Assembly: GCA_963827685.1 (NCBI GenBank)
Contig: CAWHBU010000001.1
Location: 256,001 to 320,000 of the forward strand
Reading direction: 5' to 3'
DNA from: an uncultured delta proteobacterium
GTDB taxonomy: Bacteria; Desulfobacterota; BSN033; UBA1163
Length of the DNA stretch: 64,000 bases
The notes under the pieces were generated by a model. It was not told where the DNA came from and did no database searches. It worked only from the letters and a program-made list of their open reading frames with translations. Positions 151 through 12,131 of this stretch are shown piece by piece (the first letter of the stretch is position 1; each line of letters begins with the position of its first letter). The position numbers were made by a program, and so were the translations under genes.

Positions 151-253
151 CGCCGATTCAACGGAGGCCAAGGAACAGGTGGATTAAAACAGCTATTGCA
201 TTATTTTCTGAATTCTGCTGTTCTGAATTCAGAAAATAATGTGGAGGTGCGAA

Positions 254-541
254 GTGCAAACAGCAAGATCCATCACAGCAGAAATTAAGTCCCGTGGCCA
301 GTTGACCATTCCTAAGAAAATTAGGGTCATGAGCCATCTCGAAGAAGGGCAAGTCGTCTCAATCATTCCGGTGGGCGATTCGGTCATTATTACCCCCAAG
401 AAACTTGAGCTCGACGAAGCAAGAAGAGAGATCAGAAAGATCGTTAGAGCGGTCGGCCTTACTCCTGAAGATCTCCTGGTAGGGCTCAAGGAAGAACGAG
501 AAAAGTTATATCAAGTGACCTATGGGAAAAAAAGTCGTTAG
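254..541 (+). CDS. AbrB/MazE/SpoVT-family antitoxin
   Basis: IKSRGQLTIPKKIR...LEEGQVVSII swapped-hairpin motif; GGAGG RBS before GTG 254. Confidence 0.85.
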   Translation: MQTARSITAEIKSRGQLTIPKKIRVMSHLEEGQVVSIIPVGDSVIITPKKLELDEARREIRKIVRAVGLTPEDLLVGLKEEREKLYQVTYGKKSR

Positions 542-638
542 GGAACTCGACAAGTATCCATTTCATGTCGTGACCCCCTCAGAATTTATTGATTCAATTC
601 TTCCTGAGGTTCTAAAAGGACTCGAAGAAAAAGAATGA
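522..638 (+). pseudogene. Internally deleted PIN-domain toxin remnant (38 aa)
   Basis: Overlaps antitoxin stop; MGKKVVR fused directly to a PIN-like C-terminus (YPFHVVTPSEFID); catalytic core absent. Confidence 0.6.
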
Positions 639-724
639 ATAAAGGTTGGTTCTCCTTACACCTCACGCCTCACGGTGTTTGATGCGTTATGCGAGATTCT
701 GTATGTGAGAAACGGAAAGTTTGA

Positions 725-1318
725 TTGATGAATAAGACTAAAAAACCCAGTCTCTATGTCATCGCCGGCCCAAATGGCTCGGGGAAGACAACCTTTTCCA
801 AAAAGTTTCTTCCTGATTATGTGGAATGTTTGGAATTTGTCAATGTTGATCTTATCGCCAAAGGTCTCTCTCCGTTTACCCCGGGAAGGGCGATGCTTCA
901 AGCAGGAAGGATTATGCTAGAACAAATCCATTCTTTGGGTAACCGCGGCATTGATTTTGGTTTTGAAACGACGCTTGCCGGAAAGACCTACCTTAGACTG
1001 CTGAATGAATTGAAACAGAAAGGCTACTCTATCCATCTTTTCTTCCTGTGGATTAAAAGCGTAAAACTCGCCCTGGAGCGTATTGAATTACGTGTTCAAC
1101 AAGGGGGACATTCTATTCCAGAAGCGACGGTTCGGCGTCGCTTTCGAAGAGGAATTCTTAACTTTTTCAATGAGTACCAACCTATTGTTGATTCATGGGT
1201 CATTTTTGACAATTCAGAAGACATTCCTAAAATGATTGCATTTAAAGAATCCGGAAAATTAGAAATCCTTGATTCTGCGTCATTTGACATGTTATTAAAA
1301 TATAAGGATCAAAAATGA
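725..1318 (+). CDS. Zeta-toxin/AAA_33-like P-loop ATPase (COG4185-like)
   Basis: IAGPNGSGKTT Walker A, FVNVDLIA, FETTL, RVQQGGHSIP motifs. Confidence 0.9.
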   Translation: MMNKTKKPSLYVIAGPNGSGKTTFSKKFLPDYVECLEFVNVDLIAKGLSPFTPGRAMLQAGRIMLEQIHSLGNRGIDFGFETTLAGKTYLRLLNELKQKGYSIHLFFLWIKSVKLALERIELRVQQGGHSIPEATVRRRFRRGILNFFNEYQPIVDSWVIFDNSEDIPKMIAFKESGKLEILDSASFDMLLKYKDQK

Positions 1319-1530
1319 AGACCCGCGGGAAAAAGAACCATAAGTTTTTAGCCTACATGGCCGAAAAAGCCTTTAAAGAGGCTGTTGCTGAAGCGATTGA
1401 TGAACACCGGCGGAACGGTGTTCCGATTGCCGTATGGCGTAATGGGAAAGTCGTGCTTGTACCTCCTTCTCAAATGATGGTCCGTGAGCCTCAAACCGAA
1501 TATCTCGTCTCAAAAAAAAAGAACCGCTAG
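1315..1530 (+). CDS. Small hypothetical protein, probable partner/antitoxin of the zeta-like ATPase
   Basis: ATGA overlap with upstream gene; AVAEAIDEHRRNGVPIAVWRNGKVV pattern common beside this ATPase family. Confidence 0.7.
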   Translation: MKTRGKKNHKFLAYMAEKAFKEAVAEAIDEHRRNGVPIAVWRNGKVVLVPPSQMMVREPQTEYLVSKKKNR

Positions 1531-3165: not shown

Positions 3166-4479
3166 TTATGTCCCTTGATCCTCCAGAGGCCCCGTCAACA
3201 GTGAGTCCTGCAAAATGATCCCCTTCTCCGCATAAATGGGGTGGACCATTTTTCTCAAAGAGGGAAGTTTTTTGGCAAAGAGGACCGAACCAAAAATACA
3301 TAGGATGCCGCCGATCATCGTCGTCCCGGGTGCTCCGATTGCACTCGCTAAGCTGCCAGCGAAGAGACTGCCAAAAGGAACCATTCCCATGAAGGCCATG
3401 GCATAAAAACTCATCACCCGTCCCCGCTTATCCTCGTCCACAATGGTCTGAAGCAGCGTGTTTGTCGAGGTCATTTGAACCATCATTCCAAATCCTGTGG
3501 GGACCATCATCGCCATGGATAACCAAAACAGGCGAGAGAAGGAAAATCCTATGAGCCCGATTCCAAAGAGGCTCGAAGCGATGATAACAATTCGTCCCAA
3601 GCCGAGGACACTCCTCCGTGACGCAAGAAAAATGGCTCCTGCCAGAGCTCCCACGCCCGTAGCCCCGAGAAGAAAACCGAGCGTTTGCGGTCCACCGTGA
3701 AGGATCTTTCCCGCAAAAACAGGCATGAGGACGGTGTAGGGCATTCCCATGAAACTGATGAGCGCAAGCAGAAGAAGCAGGGACCGGATGGGGACAAATC
3801 CGAAGGCGTAGCGATAGCCTTCTTTTAAACCCTGCCATAACGGAGTGCTCTGTCTGTCTTTCTTTTTCGGGGTAATTCGCATCGCTAAAAGGGCTGCGAT
3901 CACCGTGATAAAGCTCAATCCGTTCAGAAGGAAACACAATCCTTCCCCCAAAGCAGCGATCAGCATCCCTGCCACCGAGGGGCCGACCAAGCGGGCACCA
4001 TTCACCATTGAAGAGTTAAGGGCGATGGCATTCCCCAGATCCTCCCGCCGCTCGATCATATCCACGACAAAGGATTGACGAACAGGGATATCAAAGGCGT
4101 TTATTAGACCGAGAAAAAAGGCCAAAGCGATGATTTGCCAGATGACAATCGTTTCCGTCAGGACCAGGGCTGCCAGGATCAGCGCTTGAATCATGGAAAG
4201 GACTTGGGTGGCCACAAGAAGGTGGTGGCGATTCCATCGGTCCACGAGTACGCCGGCGAAAGAGGCAAGTAGGAAAGTGGGAATCCGACCGGCGAAGCCC
4301 ACCACGCCCAGTAGAAAGCTTGATTGTGTTAATCGAAATACCAACCAGCTGATGGCAGTGAGCTGGAGCCAGGTGCCGATCAACGAAATGCTCTGGCCGC
4401 CAAAGAAGAGGCGGTAATTTCGGTGCGAGAGGGCACGGAAGATCAGGCCTAAGCCTTTGGGATTCGGGGAAAAATTCAT
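3166..4479 (-). CDS. MFS transporter (MFS_3/DUF894-like)
   Basis: FRALSHRNYRLFFGGQSISLIGTW start, 12 hydrophobic segments, RGRVMSFY motif. Confidence 0.92.
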   Translation of the reverse strand: MNFSPNPKGLGLIFRALSHRNYRLFFGGQSISLIGTWLQLTAISWLVFRLTQSSFLLGVVGFAGRIPTFLLASFAGVLVDRWNRHHLLVATQVLSMIQALILAALVLTETIVIWQIIALAFFLGLINAFDIPVRQSFVVDMIERREDLGNAIALNSSMVNGARLVGPSVAGMLIAALGEGLCFLLNGLSFITVIAALLAMRITPKKKDRQSTPLWQGLKEGYRYAFGFVPIRSLLLLLALISFMGMPYTVLMPVFAGKILHGGPQTLGFLLGATGVGALAGAIFLASRRSVLGLGRIVIIASSLFGIGLIGFSFSRLFWLSMAMMVPTGFGMMVQMTSTNTLLQTIVDEDKRGRVMSFYAMAFMGMVPFGSLFAGSLASAIGAPGTTMIGGILCIFGSVLFAKKLPSLRKMVHPIYAEKGIILQDSLLTGPLEDQGT

Positions 4480-4560: not shown

Positions 4561-4622
4561 AGGGGATAGGGTCAGGTCTTGCAATCACACAGTTCATAAA
4601 ACAAGAGAGGTGTCATCCATAA
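4561..4622 (+). repeat. Composite array repeat copy (GGGTCAGGTCTTGCAATCACAC...CATCCATAA)
   Basis: Near-identical to 7481..7553 and 9391..9462. Confidence 0.9.
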
Positions 4623-4939
4623 TAGGGCAGATGGGGGGACGCGGAGATACGGTGAACAGAGATGAGGAGATATGGAAACATCTAGGATTGCGGAGTACGG
4701 AGTTAATAAAACAACGAATGAATAAGTTATCGGGTTACTAAGTGATTAAGTGTCTTTGCCAGAATTTGGGTTGGCGGACAGTATCAAGACAACCCCTCCT
4801 GCAATTTCACCTGCTACTGTCCGCTCCCGACAGATCAACTTTTCTAGGCTTTTTTTCAGCCTACTTTCTATGCTCCTCCTCCCCTCTTCCAGATTTTCCT
4901 TGAGACTTTTGTAGTTGTCTTTGTTGCTGAATAGTCTTT

Positions 4940-5047
4940 GGGGTCAAAGCTACATTATACACTTTGCTTGATAGAGATCAGAGGGGGCGTCCATAAGATT
5001 ATAAGAATCTTAAAAGGGATTTAGCTCATCCATAAAAAAGTTGGCCC
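4940..5047 (+). repeat. Divergent array repeat parts: GGGGTCAAAGCTACATTATACACTTT (4940), GGGGCGTCCATAA (~4984), CATCCATAAAAAAGTTGGCCC (5027)
   Basis: Same GGGGTCA and CATCCATAAAAAAGTTGGC cores as the other copies. Confidence 0.7.
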
Positions 5048-5426
5048 ATTCGAATGCGGAATGCAGATTGCGGATTGCGGAATGCAAATTGTAAACGCGA
5101 ATTCCAGAGTCATTGGATCATTTGGGATATTCCAAAAGTAAGTCCTGGTAGAACTCCGAAGACAACTTAAAAATAGATAGAATGTCAACCTTGTTCAAAA
5201 TAGGATTCTCAACGCAGAGACGCAAAGGACGCGGAGAAGAGGAACTGGCATGAAGATTGGGATCATCGGGAATACGAGAGACATCGTGAGGAAATGTGGG
5301 ATACCAAATTCTATGGGGTCCAGTGGATTCAGACTTGAAAATTGAGATTCGCGGTAATCTGTATGGTGGAACTTGACGGTCAGACAATCGGAAAACGTCC
5401 TAGAAAATGATCAGTCACTATTTCCT

Positions 5427-6032
5427 ATGGAGCCTATAAATCTAAATCTCATCCAAGAAATTTATCACCTCTGGGAACCAGTTTACCCCTATTTAGGCCA
5501 ACAGATCCACGAACTTTATCACCGCCAAGATGGAAACATTCTGGAAATTGGGCCATTCAGTGGCGTCATTTTTAATTTACAAAAAAGGAATATAGGCAGT
5601 TCCTTCTTAATTGCAACTTTCCCGTCTGGAATGGGTAATTATTTTCAAGAAGAGGCAATAAAACAAAAGGTGAATGATAAGATCAGGGTCATTGGAACTG
5701 ATCCAGCTTTAACCGGTATAGAAGAAAACAACATAGACCTTGCTATTTTCAGAGGAGCTTTTTTCTTTCCTTCGCTGTTTAAAGTTAATTTTTCAGTAAT
5801 TTATCGAATTTTAAAAACAAATGGGATTGCATTTATTGGAGGAGGATTTGGTAAATTCACCCCAAATAGCGTCATTAAGGACATTGGAAAGAGGTCACGG
5901 GAACTCAACCTTCAGATTGGTAAGATTGAGATAAACGAGGATAGATTACGACAAGATATCCAAATTGAGGGTATAGAAGGGGAAATCAAAATTATCTCTG
6001 AAGGGGGATTATGGGTTTTGATGAAAAAGTAG
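5427..6032 (+). CDS. Class I SAM-dependent methyltransferase-like protein (divergent)
   Basis: ILEIGPFSG motif I variant, IDLAIFRGAFFF, YRILKTNGIAFIGGGFG. Confidence 0.75.
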   Translation: MEPINLNLIQEIYHLWEPVYPYLGQQIHELYHRQDGNILEIGPFSGVIFNLQKRNIGSSFLIATFPSGMGNYFQEEAIKQKVNDKIRVIGTDPALTGIEENNIDLAIFRGAFFFPSLFKVNFSVIYRILKTNGIAFIGGGFGKFTPNSVIKDIGKRSRELNLQIGKIEINEDRLRQDIQIEGIEGEIKIISEGGLWVLMKK

Positions 6033-6040
6033 TGCGGATC

Positions 6041-6100
6041 AGGGCTGCGGGGTCAGGCTTGGGATATTGCGATTTGGTGGCCTCCATAAAAAAGTTGGCC
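6041..6100 (+). repeat. Composite array repeat copy (short form)
   Basis: AGGGCTGCGGGGTCAGGCTTGGGATATTGCGATTT joined directly to GGTGGCCTCCATAAAAAAGTTGGCC. Confidence 0.85.
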
Positions 6101-6472
6101 GTACCAAAGGTATTCGATGAAAAAACAATGGTAAAAATTGGGATGATTTCACGCCGTGAGCCATTCAAAAAGTTTGACGAAGAATAAAAAGGAGCAATGA
6201 GACAAATCGAATATTGACATTTTTCGCTAATATCCTTCCAAAATTTCCAAGTTTCTAGATAACAGCATTATCTTTAAACTCTTGTGTGTGGTTCTAAGGC
6301 TCGAATATTATTGTTTTTTTAGATTTTCCTAATTCTTATATTGAATTGGCACAAGATGTGCTATATTAAATTTGTTTCCGCCATTAATATTTATTGACCT
6401 AATCAGGATTATTGTGATCTTTTGTTTGTACTCTGATATATCTTCGGTTAAAATTCCATTAGAGATACAAGA

Positions 6473-7054
6473 ATGATGCATATGCAGGATGTAGCGAAAG
6501 AGAAAAGAATTAACGCTATCCGTTATTTTTGCAAGAATACCAAGGACCTTACCGAAACAAAACTTTACAAGCTTCTTTATTTTCTAGATTTCCTTCATTT
6601 CAAAGAAGTTGGAAGACCGGTCACGGACCTTGAATATTTTGCCTGGAATTACGGCCCTGTCCCAGCGAAACTTTTTTTTGAAATAAAAGAGAAAAAGGCT
6701 CCTAAGGAAATATTGATGTGCATCATAGAAGAGAAGGACGCAGAAACAGGCAAAAAAGTGAAGACTTCTTTTAAATCCTTGCAGGCTCCTGACCTAAATG
6801 TATTCTCAGAGAGAGAGATTGAAATTTTGGAGAGGGTAGCATTTATTTTTAAGGATGCCAAAGCCAAGGATATGACTGAAATAACTCATTTAAAAAATGA
6901 ACCTTGGCATAAAACTCTTGAGTCGAAAGGGGAAAAGTCAAAGATAGATTTCTTATTATCCCTGGATAAGGATGCGAAGATTGATAAAGACCTAGCAACG
7001 GAGCGTCTGCAATTATCAAATGAGATGAAGCAGCTTTTTGGAAGTGAAAAATAA
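6473..7054 (+). CDS. Panacea-domain (DUF4065/SocA-like) antitoxin
   Basis: TKLYKLLYFLDF, Y.AWNYGPVP, THLKNEPW motifs. Confidence 0.9.
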   Translation: MMHMQDVAKEKRINAIRYFCKNTKDLTETKLYKLLYFLDFLHFKEVGRPVTDLEYFAWNYGPVPAKLFFEIKEKKAPKEILMCIIEEKDAETGKKVKTSFKSLQAPDLNVFSEREIEILERVAFIFKDAKAKDMTEITHLKNEPWHKTLESKGEKSKIDFLLSLDKDAKIDKDLATERLQLSNEMKQLFGSEK

Positions 7055-7063
7055 GGGAATAGA

Positions 7064-7468
7064 TTGGAAAAGGGAACCATTCTATTTCACGAAAAATTTA
7101 GATTTGTTAATGGGGAATTAGGTGAGAAGTTATTAATCATTTTAAACACCCCAGACCCTAAAGTAGAACCATATCTCCTTTGTCGAGTCACTTCTCAGGA
7201 AAGCAACAAACCAAAGATCTTTGGGTGCCACCAAGACTTGTCCCTCTTTTTTCTTCCTGCCAACCATGATTTTTTTGAAAAGGATACTTGGGTTCAATTT
7301 TATGAAATTTTCCCGTTTGAGGCAACCACACTTCTTCGGGATCATTTCAATAAACAATTAAGCGTATTAGGGAAACTTAAGGATTTGACAATCCAGCAAA
7401 TGATGAATTGCATCCGAAAGATTAAAGATATATCAGTGATACATAAAAAAATGATTTTGAAAAAATAA
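7064..7468 (+). CDS. Putative toxin partner of Panacea antitoxin (possibly PemK/MazF-like fold)
   Basis: 9 bp downstream of antitoxin; GTIL...F.F..G..KLLIILN...YLLCRVTSQ resembles PemK-like beta pattern. Confidence 0.55.
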   Translation: MEKGTILFHEKFRFVNGELGEKLLIILNTPDPKVEPYLLCRVTSQESNKPKIFGCHQDLSLFFLPANHDFFEKDTWVQFYEIFPFEATTLLRDHFNKQLSVLGKLKDLTIQQMMNCIRKIKDISVIHKKMILKK

Positions 7469-7480
7469 ATCAATATCTTG

Positions 7481-7553
7481 AGGGCTCTGGGGCCAGGTCT
7501 TGCAATCACACATTTCATAAAACAAGAGAGGTATCATCCATAAAAAAGTTGGC
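7481..7553 (+). repeat. Composite array repeat copy (full form)
   Basis: AGGGCTCTGGGGCCAGGTCTTGCAATCACACATTTCATAAAACAAGAGAGGTATCATCCATAAAAAAGTTGGC. Confidence 0.92.
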
Positions 7554-7632
7554 ACAGATTTCCCAGGTGAAACCTTCGGTGTCCTTATAATATAAAGGGC
7601 CTGATCTGCAGGCTGCCAATTCTTAAATCCAC

Positions 7633-8142
7633 TTACCACAAGGAAAGCTTCTCTACTGCCAAACGAGCGGCTTTTTCTATATCTGTTGAGAATAAGGAAT
7701 TCATCTCAACCATCGAACGGCCCAATACCCGACCCGTTTCGGTATCGATGATCTTCACCTGAAGGTACCAACTCAAAAGGCTTGGAGAGTAAATCATTCC
7801 CGTTATCAGGGCCTGGGCACCCACCCTCCTACCAATCTTTAATCTGGTTGCATCATCCAGTTGGTTAAGATTGAATTTCTCTTCTTGAGGGTTGTCCAAG
7901 AACTGCCGCCCGCCCAAAATTGAAATCTGCGGGAATCTCTCGTGAAAATTCCGGGCAAAGGCCTTAGCCACTTCGCCAGTATCATCTCCTTCAAAGGGAA
8001 GGACTGCAATGTTTTCGTATTTTAAGAATTCTTTTCTGAGAAAACCACCCCCACCTGGCTGGGCACAGCCCGTGACAGAGAGAACGATCAATAGAAACAA
8101 ACAGAGAGAGATACAGACTTTCCCCTTCCCTTTTCTTTTCAT
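7633..8142 (-). CDS. Lipoprotein, CsgG/HfaB/LpoB-like domain
   Basis: Signal peptide with lipobox VTGC; IAVLPFEG, IGRRVGAQALITG, VKIIDTETGRVL. Confidence 0.8.
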   Translation of the reverse strand: MKRKGKGKVCISLCLFLLIVLSVTGCAQPGGGGFLRKEFLKYENIAVLPFEGDDTGEVAKAFARNFHERFPQISILGGRQFLDNPQEEKFNLNQLDDATRLKIGRRVGAQALITGMIYSPSLLSWYLQVKIIDTETGRVLGRSMVEMNSLFSTDIEKAARLAVEKLSLW

Positions 8143-8193
8143 TCCGGTCCTCCTAAAATATTGTAACTCCCCTTCTCTTTTCCCTCAAGAGCT

Positions 8194-8228
8194 ACAGCCT
8201 GGGGGTCAGGCAACGGTAATTCGGTATT
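8194..8228 (+). repeat. Divergent GGGGTCAGG array repeat (first part only)
   Basis: ACAGCCTGGGGGTCAGGCAACGGTAATTCGGTATT, same length and ATT end as other first parts. Confidence 0.55.
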
Positions 8229-8476
8229 GGCGTAAATCTTGAGAGAAATGTAACGATTGAAGAATTGCCCCCATGATCCACTTTTTCTTCCTGAAAGAGT
8301 GATTTTCAAATATTGCTAGGCCATCCAACATTTCACTTGGTAATCCCGAAAGCCGAAGCTTACGCCCTTACGCTTTCTTAAAAGCCAACACTAATACCAA
8401 AATCAAAAATTCAATCGTCCTTAAACAATTTTGACTTTTTCACTCAGGGTCGGCTAAAATTGGTTCGAGCATTAGG

Positions 8477-9382
8477 ATGGGGCACTCTCTCATGGTAGAA
8501 AAAATGGGAATGGAACCTTCCAAATATACAATTCTTGTCGTGGATGATAAAGAGTTATTAAGAAACCTAGTCGACACTTTTCTATCCAAACTGGGACATT
8601 CATGCGTCACAGCAATTGATGGAGTTGATGCTCTGGAGAAAATGAAGGGAAATAAAATCGATGCCGTAGTAACAGACATGAGAATGCCCAACATGGATGG
8701 AATTACTCTTACAAGTAAGATTTCAATACAATACCCTGGACTCCCGGTAATGATCATGACAGCGTTTGACGAAGGAGATACTGCAGGATTAGCAATTACT
8801 GTTGGGGCTCGAGAATTTATAAGAAAGCCATTCTCTCTAGATGAGTTTTCCGTTAGATTACATAAGATGATCAATGACTCGGAAGCTCAAAGGGGAATGA
8901 AGAAGGATAAAGACATAGATAAGTTTATCGAAGAATTTATGAATGAGTTAGAGCCTCCGAAGCAAATGAAGAGGGAAAAGGGTGTAGAGGATGGGTCGCG
9001 AGAACTTTTAGATGAGTTAGACCCCCGTCGTTATGCCCACAAAGAAATGAATAAAGACACCGATGCCTTTTTGCAACATTGTCGGCAGATCCATTTACTT
9101 GCCCTACGATTGGCAGAACACAACATCTCTATTTATAGCCATTCCTTCGATATGCTCGCATTTGGCAGCTGGGTTCTTGTCATGGGAACGCGCAAGGATC
9201 GTATTAGGGTTACTTGGGAGGGAAAGGACGGTATCCTTAAAACCGAAAGAGCTTCAATCCCAGATTCTGAGACTATAATCCGATGGCAAGAAATAACATC
9301 GGAAATAGAAAACACCTTGCCAAATGCTGAAAGCACATTCAAATCTATTGAAGAATTTGTTAAGAAAAACATCAAGGCATAA
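8477..9382 (+). CDS. Response regulator receiver domain fused in frame to an unrelated 111-aa cassette-like ORF (9047..9382)
   Basis: ILVVDD, VVTDMRMPNMDG, FIRKPF receiver motifs; abrupt change after DELDP at ~9026. Confidence 0.8.
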   Translation: MGHSLMVEKMGMEPSKYTILVVDDKELLRNLVDTFLSKLGHSCVTAIDGVDALEKMKGNKIDAVVTDMRMPNMDGITLTSKISIQYPGLPVMIMTAFDEGDTAGLAITVGAREFIRKPFSLDEFSVRLHKMINDSEAQRGMKKDKDIDKFIEEFMNELEPPKQMKREKGVEDGSRELLDELDPRRYAHKEMNKDTDAFLQHCRQIHLLALRLAEHNISIYSHSFDMLAFGSWVLVMGTRKDRIRVTWEGKDGILKTERASIPDSETIIRWQEITSEIENTLPNAESTFKSIEEFVKKNIKA

Positions 9383-9390
9383 CAAGGGAA
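9030..9390 (+). mobile_element. Integron-type gene cassette remnant with truncated attC
   Basis: Starts GTTATGCC (9030), ATG 9047, stop lies in perfectly complementary GGCATAAC (9376..9383). Confidence 0.6.
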
Positions 9391-9462
9391 AGGCTGGGGG
9401 GCCAGGTCTTGCAATCACACATTTCATAAAACAAGAGAGGTCATCCATAAAAAAATTGGCCC
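9391..9462 (+). repeat. Composite array repeat copy (full form)
   Basis: AGGCTGGGGGGCCAGGTCTTGCAATCACACATTTCATAAAACAAGAGAGGTCATCCATAAAAAAATTGGCC. Confidence 0.92.
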
Positions 9463-9531
9463 TGCAAACAAGAGATCGCAAAGAGCATGGCGCATAGAGC
9501 AGAGTGTCATTTGTAAAGAGAGTGAAAAAGT

Positions 9532-9777
9532 TCAGCCTGATAGGTTTTTTATTTTTATCCCTTTACCTTTCTTAAGGCTTTCCCTGGCGGATGCAACTCG
9601 CGCTAAGAACCTGGGATCGTGCTCTAACCTGTAGTCAAACCAGTCCTCTTCGGACCCGAAGCCAATTAAAACACCGGCCGGTTTTCCATGACGTGTGATG
9701 ATAATCTCTTCTTTTTCCGCCAAATCCAGGTATTCTGAAAGGCGGCCCTTAACCTCTGACAGTGCAATCCTTTTCAT
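9532..9777 (-). CDS. Phd/YefM-family antitoxin
   Basis: MKRIALSEVKGRLSEYL...EEIIITRHGKPAGVL. Confidence 0.9.
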   Translation of the reverse strand: MKRIALSEVKGRLSEYLDLAEKEEIIITRHGKPAGVLIGFGSEEDWFDYRLEHDPRFLARVASARESLKKGKGIKIKNLSG

Positions 9778-9989
9778 TTCTTCTCTCCCATTTCCTCCAG
9801 CCACTCAGTGGCTTTGGACTTCGGTATAATTGCCAAGACTTCTACCGTCGCTTCCACAACCATAAAAAACCCTGATTTCATCGACTCTCAATCGATACTG
9901 TGGTCGACTGATACCCTGTAACTTTTTTATCCGACTCTTGCTTATTTTTTGCGGCTCAAACCTTAGATGTTTTTCGATCGCCTCTATGA
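9774..9989 (-). pseudogene. RelE/ParE-family toxin, 5'-truncated and frameshifted
   Basis: IEAIEKHLRFEPQKISKSRIKKLQGISRPQYRLRVDEIRVFY, then 2-nt shift to VVEATVEVLAIIPK...*; ATGA overlap with antitoxin; N-terminus missing at repeat. Confidence 0.85.
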
Positions 9990-9992
9990 GTG

Positions 9993-10018
9993 GGTGGCAT
10001 CCATAAAAAAGTTGGCCC
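9993..10018 (+). repeat. Array repeat, second part only
   Basis: GGTGGCATCCATAAAAAAGTTGGCCC. Confidence 0.85.
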
Positions 10019-10053
10019 TGCCCATTAAAGTGAAGATGGGGTATTCAATTGCG

Positions 10054-10073
10054 CCTGCCTGCCGGTAGGCAGG
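10054..10073. repeat. Small palindromic CCTGCC...GGCAGG element (relatives at 23459, 26756, 31921, 35444, 51558, 59239)
   Basis: CCTGCCTGCCGGTAGGCAGG, identical to 59239..59258. Confidence 0.85.
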
Positions 10074-10157
10074 GAATGCGGATTGCCGAATGCGGAATTT
10101 AAAACTAAAAAGAGCATAGAGCGGAGCGTTTAGACCCCTTGCGCTTCACGCCTGGAT

Positions 10158-11192
10158 TTATTTCTCTCGCAGCCTTTTGGACACTTCTGCGGTCAACTCA
10201 CAAACCTTTTCAGCCAAAGGAATAGGAAGTGACGCAGCTCCACAACTGGGGGTGATGATGGTTTTTTGAAGAAGGATTGGGTCAATTCCTTTCTTTGAGA
10301 GAGTTTCAATTCCTTCTTTGAAACGTTTGATCAGACTTTGCACATCCTCTTTTAGAATAGCCTCACTCGTTGGGACGATGCCCCAGGCTAAGATGCCTCC
10401 TCTTTCTAAGAATGCTCTTAAGTCCTTTGGATAAAGAGAAAGTGTCTCCAGATATTCATATGCGTCGAAGCTGAGAATATCGAGATGCGTCGAGAGAAGC
10501 ACACTCCAGTCGGTATTTCCACAGCAGTGAGTTCCCTTTAATCCTTTCACAGCATCAAAACATTCATTTAATGAATGAACGACATCCTCCCGATTCAGGC
10601 CTGAGAAGGCAGAGCCAAATGAGGAGAGGGAGGGTTCGTCAAAAAAGAGTATCGTTGGGATCCCGGGAAAGAGGTCATTGAACTTCTTTTCCATCCATCG
10701 TGCTTTCAATGAAAGGTGTTTGACGAGGATGTCTCTTAAAGACGGGTCGTAAAAGATAGGTTTCTGCTCCTGATCGGCTAAGGCGAGACCAAACGTGACC
10801 GGCCCTGTGATCTGGCCCTTGATATATTTTATCTTCTTTCGGTGGTCTTTTGACGAGAGGGTTTTTAAGATCCGGAGCCCCCTTGCAAAATCCTCCGTGA
10901 TTTGAAAAGGGTCAAGATCGCCCTCCTCGAAACGTTGGTAAAATTTCTCGATTTCTTTCTCAAATCCCTGAGACGTCTCTATCCAAACCCTTTGTTCCTT
11001 TTCATTCCATCTTAAGGAAGGAAACCCTTCAGAATATTGAACGACCATACCTTCCAGAAAAGACCGCTTTGGCAGTTGGGGCCAGAATGGGATTTCGGGG
11101 AAGTTCTTGAAGATGAGTCCGAAGACCTCCTTCTCATCCTGATGAGGGAAGGACCCGATTCCTGTTGTGATGAAAGGGTATTGAAATTCCAT
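10158..11192 (-). CDS. Cobalamin-independent methionine synthase II-like (single-barrel MetE/Meth_synt_2) protein
   Basis: TGIGSFPH, PFWPQLP, KGQITGPVT, FFDEP, HCCGN, WGIVPT, ITPSCG Zn-ligand motifs. Confidence 0.85.
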   Translation of the reverse strand: MEFQYPFITTGIGSFPHQDEKEVFGLIFKNFPEIPFWPQLPKRSFLEGMVVQYSEGFPSLRWNEKEQRVWIETSQGFEKEIEKFYQRFEEGDLDPFQITEDFARGLRILKTLSSKDHRKKIKYIKGQITGPVTFGLALADQEQKPIFYDPSLRDILVKHLSLKARWMEKKFNDLFPGIPTILFFDEPSLSSFGSAFSGLNREDVVHSLNECFDAVKGLKGTHCCGNTDWSVLLSTHLDILSFDAYEYLETLSLYPKDLRAFLERGGILAWGIVPTSEAILKEDVQSLIKRFKEGIETLSKKGIDPILLQKTIITPSCGAASLPIPLAEKVCELTAEVSKRLREK

Positions 11193-11526: not shown

Positions 11527-11560
11527 TTGACAATTTAAAATTCGACGGTTATTTATAAAA
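11527..11560 (+). promoter_or_regulatory. Probable sigma70 promoter of groESL, separated from groES by IS200
   Basis: TTGACA followed ~17 bp later by TATTTATAAA. Confidence 0.5.
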
Positions 11561-11569
11561 AATACCTGT

Positions 11570-12096
11570 TGAATACCGCCCAGCTCTGCTGGGCGGATGA
11601 AAACAGGTTCGCGAAGCGATAAGACATGGTATAAGTACTGCATGAGCTCGATAAAAAGAACAAGCCATGCGGTCTACGATTTGAAATATCATATGGTATG
11701 GGTTCCCAAATATCGGAAGATGATATTGGGAGGTGAGTTGGCAAAAAGGCTTAAGATGAGTTTTGAGCAAATATCGGAGAGGTACGAGTTTGAGATAGAT
11801 ACGATGGAGGTAAAGGATGATCATGTTCATTTATTTTTGTCTGCCCCTCCTCGGTATTGTCCGGCAGAGATTGTGCAGATCATAAAGAGTATCTCGGCGA
11901 AAATGGTGTTCAAGCAGTTTCCAGAGGTGAAGAAAGAGCTTTGGGGTGGAGAGTTTTGGAGTGATGGGTATTTTGTTCGGTCTGTTGGAGACAAAGTTAC
12001 CTCTGAAGTCATACGTCGCTATATAAAGTATCAGCAACAGGAGCAATTAAGTTTTGAATTTTAATGCCCCGCAGCTCTGCTGCGGGGTTCTTTACT
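11570..12096 (+). mobile_element. IS200/IS605-family element (tnpA only)
   Basis: Subterminal hairpins CCGCCCAGCTCTGCTGGGCGG (11577) and CCCCGCAGCTCTGCTGCGGGG (12067) flanking tnpA; ends approximate. Confidence 0.85.
11642..12064 (+). CDS. tnpA: IS200-family Y1 (HUH) transposase
   Basis: YHMVWVPKYR, DHVHLF (HUH), FWSDGYFVRSVG, YIKYQ catalytic Tyr. Confidence 0.95.
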   Translation: MSSIKRTSHAVYDLKYHMVWVPKYRKMILGGELAKRLKMSFEQISERYEFEIDTMEVKDDHVHLFLSAPPRYCPAEIVQIIKSISAKMVFKQFPEVKKELWGGEFWSDGYFVRSVGDKVTSEVIRRYIKYQQQEQLSFEF

Positions 12097-12131
12097 TTGA
12101 ATAAATTTTAACAGAAGGGAGGTCTGTCTCT

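Follow-up and report, generated by a model that had tools for sequence, protein, structure and literature searches.

A constant-direction repeat separates exchangeable gene modules in an uncultured delta proteobacterium and may point to an undescribed gene-stacking mechanism

Between an MFS transporter gene and a weakly MetE-like gene, in a window of 64 kb (the whole stretch of DNA analysed) from an uncultured delta proteobacterium, a repeat recurs in one orientation from 4.5 to 10 kb among unrelated accessory genes. An earlier note took this locus for an integron-like gene-capture array delimited by parts A and B, the two ends of one site served by a recombinase or an HUH/RAYT-type transposase. 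The question that the locus raises is what separates these genes and what could bring them together.

Repeats and array architecture

The defining element of the array is part B, a 25-bp core, GGTGTCATCCATAAAAAAGTTGGCC, in which about 19 positions hold 1.5-1.9 bits and whose flanks are unconserved. When the window was scanned with the pattern CATCCATAAAAAAGTTGGC at up to 3 mismatches, five matches were found, all on the + strand (5027, 6081, 7535, 9442 and 9998), against 0.03 expected by chance; none of 100 shuffles reached five, and the remainder of the window held no further match at this threshold. A sixth copy, at 4607-4622, has the left half of part B only, and the copy previously listed at ~4984 is a B-like half site within a longer repeat unit. 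Part A, which opens GGGGYCAGGTCT, is unrelated to part B. Its core, GGGGYCAGGYNTKG, scanned at up to 1 mismatch, was found four times on the + strand (4568, 6049, 7489 and 9398) where 0.46 matches are expected by chance, and 0 of 100 shuffles gave four. The repeat described in the earlier note is therefore real, although its list of part A copies needs revision: those at 4940 (GGGGTCAAAGC...) and 8202 (GGGGTCAGGCAACGG..., with no B behind it) belong to variant subfamilies, and that at ~5325 is unconvincing. The three copies said to be almost the same over ~55 bp, at 4569, 7490 and 9399, have 54 nt in common with ungapped identities to the first of 94% and 81%, the latter figure because of a 2-nt indel.

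The features of the array are collected in Table 1. Three ORFs do stop just before part A, as had been noted, with ends at 6032, 7468 and 9382 that lie 16-21 nt before its GGGG, and the cargo is AT-rich as described (GC 0.36-0.41 over 5001-9000 versus 0.46-0.48 for the contigs). Among the gene labels first proposed, SocA/Panacea, response-regulator receiver and Phd/YefM are solid, whereas methyltransferase and MetE-like are weak.

Table 1. Features of the array in the window and of its flanks
Feature	Position	Strand	Match	Further observations
MFS transporter gene, left array flank	3166..4479	-	Pfam MFS_3, E 4e-62	In relatives only 66-70% identical matches, on other contigs
Truncated junction: part A and left half of B (GGTGTCATCCATAA), then purine-rich octamers	4568..4622	+		Half-B variant also in L045
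Long junction unit: A2 (GGGGTCAAAGCTACATTATACACTTTGC), B-like half site, B core 5022-5046	4940..5046	+		Units 91-93% identical in C5 and C7 arrays
Tandem heptamers GCGGAAT/GCGGATT behind B	5052..5110	+		Genome-wide intergenic repeat type
Cassette ORF, 219 aa	5373..6032	+	Pfam Methyltransf_11, E 0.08 (weak methyltransferase call)	Alone on other contigs in G008, G013, G010, G014
Part A (6049), short spacer, B core 6076-6100	6041..6100	+		
Two-gene cassette: SocA/Panacea antitoxin-like ORF 6473-7054, partner ORF 7064-7468	6473..7468	+	ORF 6473-7054: Pfam SocA_Panacea, E 5e-22; NCBIfam SocA, E 1e-13	
A-B junction unit, B core 7530-7554	7481..7554	+		
Reverse-oriented cassette ORF, 169 aa, lipoprotein-like	7633..8142	-	DUF3280, E 1e-5, below cut-off	Adjoins MetE-like gene in G006; near MetE-like gene in G003
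Solo part A variant (GGGGTCAGGCAACGGTAATTCGG), no B behind	8195..8229	+		Peat metagenome contig: this variant, 13 nt, then B (joint 8229->5026); G003 homology breaks inside its GGGG
Cassette ORF: response-regulator receiver fused to variable C-terminal part	8477..9382	+	Response_reg, E 1e-26	Relatives' homology stops near 9024; metagenome depth ~0 over 9020-9320
A-B junction unit, B core 9437-9461	9390..9461	+		
Reverse toxin-antitoxin cassette: Phd/YefM antitoxin 9532-9804 and B-cut RelE/ParE-like remnant upstream	9532..9990	-	Antitoxin: PhdYeFM, E 2e-11; toxin remnant read by eye, no Pfam match	Cassette 92% identical in arrays of G011 and G008
Last B core of array	9993..10017	+		
GC-rich palindrome (GCGCCTGCCTGCCGGTAGGCAGG) and heptamers behind last B	10040..10105	+		
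Right flank, weakly MetE-like	10158..11192	-	28.6 bits vs cut-off 258	Conserved, syntenic with groES-groEL across genus
IS200 insertion, outside array system	11551..12097	+	NF033573, 158 bits vs cut-off 55	Y1 transposase gene 11597-12064; hairpin ends visible; at least 17 further near-identical copies in this genome (G000); absent at this spot in relatives

Of the four to five cassette arrays in this genome, one lies in the window, and part B is found almost only in such arrays. In a profile search of the genome, 45 of the 74 matches listed had E <= 0.01, and 39 of these 45 lie in five same-strand clusters, on contigs C1, C4 (two), C5 and C7. The arrays are rows of one- or two-gene modules separated by part B in a constant direction. 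Median distances are 1118 bp from one B to the next (interquartile range 788-1876, n = 125) and 62 nt between a stop codon and B, and 162 ORFs run in the direction of B against 29 opposite (85% same). Toxin-antitoxin, defence, detoxification and orphan genes make up a hyper-diverse cargo, in which the largest cluster among 887 ORFs of at least 120 aa occurs in 11 loci. The spacers combine several repeat families in mosaic fashion, namely B, part A, runs of heptamers and of octamers, and GC-rich palindromes; the heptamers are not specific to B, lying behind it at 8 of their 92 sites in the genome. All 14 genomes examined from the genus carry part B, as do 21 of the 24 from the family; it was found in none of the 16 from elsewhere.

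It is barely credible that all this arose by chance or from mis-assembly across a collapsed repeat. The assembly is of metagenome type, with an estimated contamination of 7.98%, and many contigs of relatives are broken by repeats. However, apart from the chance expectation given above, motif and architecture recur in independent assemblies (21 further genomes among those searched, 109 stretches in the genome collection, and metagenome contigs numbering at least 120), and most of the region is covered, at an identity of at least 99%, by contigs of the metagenome run that matches it best.

Exchange of modules at part B

Modules have been swapped among arrays and genomes, with breakpoints inside or at part B. 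Nine pairs of B sites from different loci have the downstream module alone in common, with homology beginning 12 to 0 nt before B; nine further pairs have only the upstream module in common, and there homology ends, in both members, 14 to 38 nt past the start of B. The copy at C4:505376 combines an upstream side from G005 with a downstream side from the C5 array. Between flanks that are 95% identical, G004 and G010 differ by one unit of ~0.95 kb with B at one edge and a degenerate B at the other, and this cassette is present in another array of G010, again terminated by B. In relatives the locus has other segments or a smaller number of them, the variation that the earlier note had proposed to look for: the cassette sets of the orthologous groESL locus differ among G000, G010, G004, G006 and G003. 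Contigs from three other metagenome runs carry the window's cassettes in altered order, and the joints (6032->9405, 6075->7488, 6108->10052 and 4967->9993) fall at part A or B. The earlier reading of a gene-cassette array is borne out by these comparisons, in which modules reassort at the repeats. Module ends are often tens of nucleotides off B, in variable low-complexity DNA, and no circular or excised form was seen in the assembled contigs that the search covered.

The explanation that we prefer, tentatively, is an integron-like cassette platform that recombines at part B via a putative enzyme, encoded away from the arrays and acting in trans. Part B would be the core site of a site-specific recombination system, in which two direct B sites would permit excision of a module carrying one B, and the free module would insert at an existing B with two sites regenerated, like integron cassettes at attC/attI. 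Deletion between direct repeats and short-homology exchange could give the same comparative pattern, and this counts against such a platform.

It is also possible, though somewhat unlikely, that there is no dedicated system, and that recombination (homologous or by short homology), together with gene conversion and slippage, exchanges modules at mosaic intergenic repeats. B would then be a functional signal, for instance one bound by a protein or one that works as an RNA element within a read-through transcript. The mosaic nature of the spacers fits this, as do homology breaks at the 5' edge of part A and in low-complexity DNA, and neither an enzyme linked to B nor, in the genome, any serine recombinase domain was found. 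At the orthologous locus in G003 and G009, moreover, other repeats, without B, stand between the cassettes, and B is therefore dispensable for a module boundary. Against a mere signal stands the strict polarity of B, which tracks the array and not the neighbouring gene: none of 30 loci (26 from relatives and four own arrays) has B on both strands, and its orientation is constant even beside reversed cassette genes, for example those at 7633-8142 and 9532-9990. B is also confined to arrays, unlike the spread of a regulon or of the heptamers, and no promoter, terminator or Rfam match overlaps it. Orthologous copies decay about as fast as the DNA that flanks them, which argues against local purifying selection on a signal, and older arrays such as those of G010 contain decayed copies while others have perfect ones, so that sites renewed by recombination fit better than such selection.

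Candidate enzymes

In ~1 Mb of B-bearing DNA no recombinase was found linked to part B, bar one IntI case: a tyrosine recombinase is present in 1 of 135 B-bearing loci (1.01 Mb), where intI lies 5.6 kb from the B array of G011 in a non-canonical layout. Intact IntI, above the curated cut-off, was found in 12 of 41 related genomes, and this genome has a truncated intI only. These occurrences would suit a CALIN-variant integron (CALIN being clusters of attC sites that lack an integron integrase) in which the lineage's IntI recombines B as a double-stranded, attI-like or secondary site via its GTT triplet, an explanation that we nevertheless regard as quite improbable. The 3' part of B, GTTGGCC, fits six of seven positions of the R' consensus, GTTRRRY; relatives' attI-like ends are likewise an AT-rich run followed by GTT, and sedentary chromosomal integrons have the same kind of architecture and cargo. 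However, B sites with 100 nt upstream had no significant fold in 17 of 17 cases tested (z -0.99 to +1.69), whereas three canonical attC sites beside relatives' intI did fold (z -4.4 to -5.4). Part B was accordingly rejected as an attC site, in agreement with the earlier note. Copies inspected by eye showed no inverse-core partner upstream of B, relatives' intI are followed by canonical GC-rich attC cassettes and not by part B, and six integron cassette regions had no cassettes in common with the B arrays. Nor does the number of B copies track IntI, as G001 has an intact IntI yet just 2 copies, while G007, G008 and G012 have 12-25 copies and no IntI was found in them; G010 and G004, without intact IntI, still differ by their B-bounded unit.

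Part A has a different source. A RAYT-class Y1 transposase gene lies outside the window at G000:C4:98189-99037 (RAYT model NF047646, 96.4 bits against a cut-off of 80, at C4:98621-99022), bracketed by 28-nt inverted repeats beginning GGGGTCAGGTCT, and this arrangement recurs in G007, G010 and G023. Elsewhere in the genome part A occurs without part B, as repeats flanking transposase and as MITE-like inverted doublets that retain a vestige of the RAYT gene's C-terminal helix-turn-helix. We identify part A as the terminal inverted repeat of a RAYT-class Y1 transposase element whose protein has this helix-turn-helix; its copies beside B are solo terminal repeats of an element that colonised the same intergenic spots. 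An A-like element was found within 120 nt upstream of 35 of 155 B copies, and A and B can thus no longer be taken for two ends of one site. The RAYT-type enzyme that had been proposed is linked to A, and none is linked to B.

Could such an HUH (Y1/RAYT) transposase build the arrays, with A as its cleavage end and B as a second recognition site or preferred target? The identity of part A itself would be in keeping with this. In G007, moreover, a RAYT-class element and a B site are close together, the element ~1 kb upstream, and in G002 two B copies on contig C5 have RAYT-like matches at ~240 bp and ~3 kb. The C-terminal helix-turn-helix, which has a weak likeness to DnaA_C (E 6e-4, below cut-off), could bind B, where TCATCCATA matches seven of nine positions of the DnaA-box consensus, and movement of segments as single strands would suit the same-strand bias. 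We consider this very unlikely, as 120 of the 155 B copies are without an A-like element in the 120 nt upstream, and the RAYT-HTH family occurs in 36 of 41 genomes, among them all 13 genomes of families f2 and f3, where part B is absent. B forms no hairpin, and no gene is flanked by inverted B copies. The window's own Y1 gene, overlooked in the earlier note, belongs to an ordinary multi-copy IS200 with hairpin ends of its own, recently inserted and unrelated to the array system. Since part B is not attC and lacks a neighbouring recombinase gene, it may be the sign of a gene-stacking mechanism not described before.

Comparison with known systems

The arrays resemble sedentary chromosomal integrons and CALIN in their cassettes of one or two genes and ~0.5-2 kb, each followed by a repeat of constant orientation, in their mostly co-oriented ORFs with reversed toxin-antitoxin cassettes interspersed, and in an AT-rich, hyper-diverse cargo in which toxin-antitoxin and defence genes abound. 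As in those systems, there are several arrays per genome without a neighbouring integrase, and close relatives differ in array content. Unlike an attC site, part B is a 25-bp motif conserved in sequence, with no hairpin, R''/L'' partner or extrahelical-base architecture; the lineage's canonical attC sites look quite different from it, and the truncated intI of this genome is a further departure from integrons.

The likeness to REP/REPIN repeats and their RAYT concerns part A only, a short repeat 3' of genes, in single copies and inverted doublets, that is inverted around a Y1 gene scoring above the RAYT cut-off. Its transposase differs in carrying a C-terminal helix-turn-helix, and its flanking repeats resemble terminal inverted repeats of 22-28 nt and not the self-palindromic REPs with their GTAG head; part B is associated with no such gene. 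Xer-dependent modules, such as those at pdif sites of Acinetobacter plasmids and elements at dif, are likewise small and bounded by short conserved sites (~28 bp), often carry toxin-antitoxin or resistance genes, and are moved by a housekeeping recombinase encoded elsewhere. No dif site of the lineage was identified for comparison with part B. The pdif sites have two inverted arms of 11 bp on either side of a 6-bp spacer, and their orientation alternates around modules, whereas part B, by inspection, has none of the dyad symmetry typical of tyrosine or serine recombinase core sites, and all its copies point one way. Finally, the spacers recall BIMEs and short tandem repeats of intergenic DNA in being mosaics in which several families of short repeats meet at gene 3' ends. 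Repeats of the BIME type are spread over the whole genome, whereas part B keeps to a few arrays of accessory genes and lies at the breakpoints where modules were exchanged.

Distribution of part B in the window and in the lineage

The modules of the array are delimited by part B, an oriented 25-bp motif, and upstream of some copies lies a second repeat, part A. The core of part B, CATCCATAAAAAAGTTGGC, has five matches with up to 3 mismatches in the 64 kb, all on the + strand, with 0.03 expected by chance, and the core of part A, GGGGYCAGGYNTKG, has four matches with up to 1 mismatch, again all on the + strand, with a chance expectation of 0.46. The same-orientation repeat described in the earlier note is indeed confined to the array region, with no part B elsewhere in the window, and the three almost identical copies, put there at about 55 bp, were recovered as 54 nt common to three A-B units. 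A sixth part B proved to be truncated to its left half, and two further copies of part A are variants. Three ORFs end 16-21 nt upstream of the GGGG of part A, in agreement with genes that had been said to stop just before it, and the AT-rich character ascribed to the cargo is borne out by a GC content of 0.36-0.41 over 5-9 kb of the window versus 0.46-0.48 for the contigs.

Across the genome under study (5.23 Mb in 14 contigs, given C numbers; the window spans C1:256001-320000) there are 13 exact copies of part B, 37 with up to 2 mismatches and 51 with up to 3. A profile search listed 74 matches, 45 of them with E <= 0.01; 39 of these 45 fall into five clusters, each on a single strand, and the other six are singletons. 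With up to 2 mismatches allowed, part B was present in 22 of 41 genomes, this one included; by taxon it was found in 14/14 of the genus, 21/24 of the family and 0/16 outside the family. The reversed pattern, used as a control over the same 41 genomes, gave 3 matches in total. The exact 19-mer of part B occurs in 109 stretches of a species-level genome collection, whose holders are, by record title, nearly all Thermodesulfobacteriota, Syntrophaceae-type or 'delta proteobacterium' MAGs; the few single matches outside the lineage are close to the chance expectation for a collection of such size. Exact part B was not found in IMG/VR viral contigs. At least 120 metagenome contigs carry part B, and its abundance in wetland, peat and sediment metagenomes puts material for testing at hand. 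In 155 copies, drawn from the arrays of this genome and from 26 loci in relatives, a conserved block extends from -5 to +19, GGTGT CATCCATAAAAAAGTTGGCC, with 1.5-1.9 bits at most positions; these copies show no conservation upstream of -5, and by inspection part B has no dyad symmetry. Part B is a lineage-wide, array-restricted and strictly oriented 25-bp motif.

At the repeats we found neither known RNA families or tRNA/tmRNA anchors nor sigma-70 promoter or terminator patterns. A sigma-54-like reading of part B and the TTGC that follows it was rejected by inspection, the spacing being wrong (GG-N11-GC), and the tandem heptamers behind part B are not specific to it, only 8 of the 92 (GCGGAWT)n sites in the genome standing behind one. 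The 5.2 Mb carry an unusually large number of tandem 7-9-nt repeats, 724 having a period of 7 and 1585 a period of 6-9. Runs of (GCGGAAT)n closely follow stop codons and tRNA genes, often forming convergent inverted pairs in the intergenic space.

Locations of the repeats, elements and genes discussed in the text (L numbers are extracted loci)
Feature	Location	Remark
Part B cluster	C1:261.0-266.0 kb	array in window
Part B cluster	C4:503.3-536.1 kb	
Part B cluster	C4:726.2-729.1 kb	
Part B cluster	C5:55.4-70.2 kb	
Part B cluster	C7:180.0-190.6 kb	
Part B core matches	window 5027, 6081, 7535, 9442, 9998	+ strand
Truncated part B	window 4607-4622	left half
Part A core matches	window 4568, 6049, 7489, 9398	+ strand
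Variant part A copies	window 4940, 8202	
ORF ends ahead of part A	window 6032, 7468, 9382	
Metagenome joints, ends at A or B	window 6032 to 9405, 6075 to 7488, 6108 to 10052, 4967 to 9993, 5120 to 7593, 5120 to 8200	
Further metagenome joint	window 8229 back to 5026	
Part B copy with two affinities	C4:505376	
Response-regulator fusion	window 8477-9382	receiver part to ~9024
RelE/ParE-like toxin remnant	window 9805-9990	- strand
MazE-like gene, zeta toxin, 300-aa ORF	window 239-1530, 2089-2991	left of MFS gene
CBASS-like pair, M78/HTH pair	C4:500700-503000 (L009 4700-6930)	
Tandem-repeat examples	window 5052-5085, 10078-10098	
IS200	window 11551-12097	between MetE-like gene and groES
Y1 gene of IS200	window 11597-12064	
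RAYT gene	C4:98189-99037	283-aa protein
RAYT model match (NF047646)	C4:98621-99022	
intI fragment	C3:782919-783275 (L017 8910-9215)	
Integron remnant without intI	C2:~690000-692400 (L181)	
198-202-aa tyrosine recombinases	C4:172548-173156, C6:132834-133430, C2:692523-693119	
dif-like candidate	C2:326899	
DDE IS left-end fragments	C4:509912, C4:728860, C5:70204	

Part A and the RAYT-class element

The core of part A has 32 matches in the genome (up to 6 mismatches in 25 nt), inside and outside arrays, and among them are five MITE-like inverted doublets of about 130 bp and one shorter doublet. Four genes score above the cut-off of the model for RAYT, the REP-associated Y1 transposase. One of them (96.4 bits against a cut-off of 80; Pfam Y1_Tnp, E 5e-12) encodes a protein in which a Y1 domain is combined with a C-terminal helix-turn-helix, and is tightly flanked by 28-nt inverted arms, 89% complementary, that start with GGGGTCAGGTCT. 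Homologues in three relatives (G007, G010 and G023) have like flanks, with arms of 22-28 nt that are 89-100% complementary, and by eye the remnant inside the doublets of part A is similar to this family's C-terminal helix-turn-helix. Since a RAYT gene is flanked by inverted A-type repeats, and since such repeats form doublets, part A is a solo terminal repeat of a RAYT-class element, the flanks of the gene differing from the part A of the window past the outer ~13 nt. All three features of REP/RAYT systems, namely a Y1 enzyme, inverted flanking repeats, and dispersed singletons and doublets, are found for part A, which is an element of a different, known kind, separate from part B.

The earlier note had taken A and B for the two ends of one site, served by a recombinase or a HUH/RAYT-type transposase. 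An A-like element lies within 120 nt upstream of only 35 of the 155 copies of part B, and the idea of a single two-part site is therefore abandoned. The proposed class of enzyme survives for part A, in the RAYT gene with its A-type flanks, and falls for part B, to which none could be linked: all four RAYT-class genes have other flanking repeats, no inverted pairs of part B were found, and the RAYT-HTH family occurs in 36 of 41 genomes, including families without part B. A HUH route for the modules is highly improbable in our estimate.

The window has a Y1 gene of its own, which the IS200 model scores at 158 bits and the RAYT model at 33 bits (cut-off 80). The element is an ordinary IS200 with its own hairpin ends, CCGCCCAGCTCTGCTGGGCGG and CCCCGCAGCTCTGCTGCGGGG, and these ends and the low RAYT score led us to reject it as the enzyme of the array repeats. 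The genome holds at least 17 further near-identical copies, none of those listed being in an array, and 14 relatives lack the element here.

Exchange of modules and their cargo

When the oriented arrays were compared all against all, nine pairs of sites had the downstream module alone in common, with homology starting 12 to 0 nt ahead of part B, and nine further pairs had the upstream module alone in common, with homology ending 14-38 nt past the start of part B and at an equal offset in both members. A nitroreductase module of 1116 bp, 98% identical between the C4 and C5 arrays, starts 6 nt before part B in both, and one copy of part B in C4 resembles the relative G005 on its left side and the C5 array on its right. 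On the groESL side, the arrays of the relatives G010 and G004 are 95% identical, with one extra unit of ~0.95 kb in G004. This unit lies between a part B and a degenerate part B, its flanks fit an event between two part B sites, and its cassette is also found in another G010 array, again with part B behind it.

All 14 relatives of the genus keep the right flank of the window locus, a weakly MetE-like gene and groES-groEL, in synteny. To the left of this flank G010 has a 16-kb array with different cargo, and in G006 and G003 the lipoprotein-like cassette adjoins it without the response-regulator and toxin-antitoxin cassettes, so that relatives do carry different or fewer segments here, as had been predicted. 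Individual window cassettes are found singly on other contigs of relatives, and assembled contigs of three other metagenome runs (peat, marsh and wetland) have them in other orders, joined at the positions in the table. These contigs were matched at 90% likeness and come from related organisms; the joints thus show natural variation in order, and do not show excision within one strain. That the pattern, recurring as it does in separate genomes and metagenome assemblies, is an artefact we consider extremely improbable. Diverse one- or two-gene modules reassort at part B.

No locus out of 30 has part B on both strands. Successive copies of part B lie a median 1118 bp apart (interquartile range 788-1876, n=125). 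ORFs of 70 aa or more number one or two in 83 of the 115 intervals of up to 4 kb, and of the ORFs in these intervals 162 run with part B and 29 against it. From the last co-oriented stop to the next part B the median distance is 62 nt. Where genes are reversed, such as the lipoprotein-like ORF of the window and the Phd/RelE-type pair, the direction of part B is unchanged. Same-strand sites, short cassettes, co-oriented ORFs and strain-variable content, the architecture of integrons and of CALINs (attC clusters lacking an integrase), are all present in the part B arrays.

The cargo is rich in toxin-antitoxin modules (Phd/YefM, ParE/YoeB, PIN, HicAB, BrnTA, zeta, Fic, DarT-macro and Panacea), and also includes HEPN/MNT-type nucleotidyltransferases, a reverse transcriptase, genes for type I restriction-modification, proteins of the SIR2 and ORF6N kinds, and nitroreductase, flavodoxin, metallo-beta-lactamase-fold and glyoxalase genes. 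A few genes, for example amtB-glnK and RluA, look like housekeeping genes. Some 145 loci bearing part B supplied 887 ORFs of 120 aa or longer, and the largest homology cluster of these reaches only 11 loci.

Several genes in and near the arrays deserve mention in their own right. The receiver part of the response-regulator fusion is common in relatives and metagenomes; its C-terminal 120 aa have no homologue among the relatives and a metagenome depth of ~0, and the gene appears to have arisen by a recent fusion or an exchange of domains. Upstream of the Phd antitoxin, a toxin remnant of RelE/ParE-like type was made out by eye; it is frameshifted, its N-terminus is cut by the last part B, and it has no Pfam match. 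The accessory genes to the left of the MFS gene have no part B sites nearby, and one of them, a 300-aa ORF without a family, has many copies of 70-92% identity across relatives. Directly upstream of the first part B of the large C4 array are a CBASS-like pair (a DncV-like nucleotidyltransferase and a downstream ORF) and an M78/HTH pair.

Integrons, candidate enzymes and the nature of part B

According to Cury et al. (2016, PMC4889954), attC is an imperfect palindrome whose single strand folds to a hairpin with R and L boxes. Seventeen part B sites with 100 nt upstream, folded as bottom-strand ssDNA, gave z values of -0.99 to +1.69, with 32-194 of 200 shuffles folding at least as well, and four window copies folded on both strands gave -0.71 to +0.51. 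The positive control, three canonical attC beside relatives' intI, gave -4.36, -5.41 and -4.95, with 0 of 200 shuffles as good. Folding with these controls rules out that part B is an attC, in keeping with the earlier description of the repeat. Integron core sites have the form RYYYAAC ... GTTRRRY, inverse, at the two ends. The 3' end of part B, GTTGGCC, agrees with GTTRRRY at 6 of 7 positions; a GGCCAAC-like complementary box was not seen upstream in the copies read by eye.

The integron integrase, IntI, is present above the curated cut-off (TIGR02249) in 12 of 41 genomes. The genome under study has only a C-terminal fragment (191 bits versus a cut-off of 265, model positions 197-315; C-terminal 100-140 aa), which adjoins ligA and a Phd/ParE pair. 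A like fragment in G010 indicates that the truncation probably predates the split of the two. Relatives' intI genes have an attI-like end upstream and then GC-rich hairpin attC of the GCCTAAC...GTTAGRC type, unlike part B. Their contigs often break right after the attI-like ...AATTGTT, and those of L034, L033, L035, L036 and L040 start 170-590 bp upstream of intI, some exactly at this point; cassette arrays thus disrupt the relatives' assemblies, whose integron content is under-assembled. Only one of 13 IntI loci of relatives has a part B array in reach, 5.6 kb past the 3' end of intI and convergent with it, a non-canonical layout. The copy number of part B does not go with the presence of IntI, and no cassettes common to part B arrays and six integron cassette regions of relatives were found. 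That IntI uses part B as a non-canonical site, with the GTTGGCC end on the one side and this distribution on the other, is improbable. C2 also holds the remnant of a canonical integron without intI. Its attI-like end, TTCGTCTATTGTT|CGGC, has homology to the DNA that precedes intI in relatives; after this end come an ORF and what looks like a canonical attC. The immediate upstream neighbour of the remnant is a 198-aa tyrosine recombinase that has a ribbon-helix-helix partner.

The 135 loci bearing part B (1.01 Mb) were searched by tblastn with IntI, the 400-aa integrase, the 198-aa tyrosine recombinase, an IS200 transposase, a DDE transposase and a reverse transcriptase, and no tyrosine recombinase was found in them but at one IntI locus. 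Representatives of recurrent cargo ORF clusters include no recombinase, and the resolvase/invertase domain PF00239 has 0 matches in the genome under study (94.5% complete). Its tyrosine recombinases comprise two Xer-like proteins, the 400-aa integrase, three 198-aa copies, three recombinase-in-trio elements and the intI fragment, and none of them sits at an array. The three 198-202-aa copies are 89-92% identical as proteins, each with a small ribbon-helix-helix gene ahead and differing accessory neighbours; this recombinase was discarded as the enzyme of part B because it occurs in only 4 of 41 genomes. A Xer/dif-type site has 28 bp, in which a 6-bp spacer separates two inverted 11-bp arms. 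The only dif-like candidate of the genome was in 0 of the 40 relatives searched, and part B, by inspection, is without such symmetry. The IS110-family genes (six above cut-off and one fragment) are far from the arrays and have no tie to part B; nor has a 1.63-kb DDE insertion sequence (DUF772/DDE_Tnp_1_6) with 14 full copies, three of them inside part B arrays (C4, C5 and C7). Three left-end fragments of the latter lie beside junction repeats, two abutting part A within a few nt and the third ending 76 nt ahead of a part B. The part B arrays have no attC structure and no adjacent recombinase.

We tentatively favour, at a little under even confidence, site-specific recombination at part B by an enzyme acting in trans, a mechanism suggested by homology that switches at or near the motif. 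The modules could instead be exchanged through short homology at mosaic repeats, with part B being some other signal. At the orthologous locus of G003 and G009 the cassette boundaries are purine-rich octamers, heptamers and GC-rich palindromes without part B, and it is within the GGGG of part A that homology with the window ends; many homology ends lie tens of nt from part B, in low-complexity DNA. Among the assembled contigs, an excised form was not seen. This last result, the boundaries without part B, the ends away from it and the lack of a dyad weaken the case for a dedicated mechanism. We regard exchange at mosaic repeats as rather unlikely.

Returning to site-specific recombination, part B may be the recombination site of a new cassette platform, independent of integrons, a short, double-stranded, asymmetric site whose recombinase is encoded elsewhere; in this full form the proposal is a possibility on the unlikely side. 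The hosts of such a platform would be a family of uncultured Syntrophales-type Thermodesulfobacteriota, its recombination might be carried out by a housekeeping tyrosine recombinase that was co-opted or by an enzyme not yet recognised, and, like integrons, it would keep a store of toxin-antitoxin and defence genes. If recombination is site-specific, this would be a second, independent route to gene stockpiling, and would imply a recombinase that acts on a site of a new type. If mosaic-repeat exchange is at work, integron-like arrays can arise without a dedicated enzyme, which bears on the origin of cassettes and CALINs.

In the literature, covered mostly at the level of abstracts, we came across no report of cassette arrays without attC from this lineage. 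To our knowledge, integrons are the sole well-understood system for assembling promoterless genes into arrays open to exchange, and all integron detection tools that we know of look for the attC hairpin and IntI. Arrays of the part B type share architecture and cargo with integrons, but their site is short and without structure and no integrase adjoins them; such tools would miss them. They work like integron arrays, yet by the tests that define those arrays they do not belong among them.
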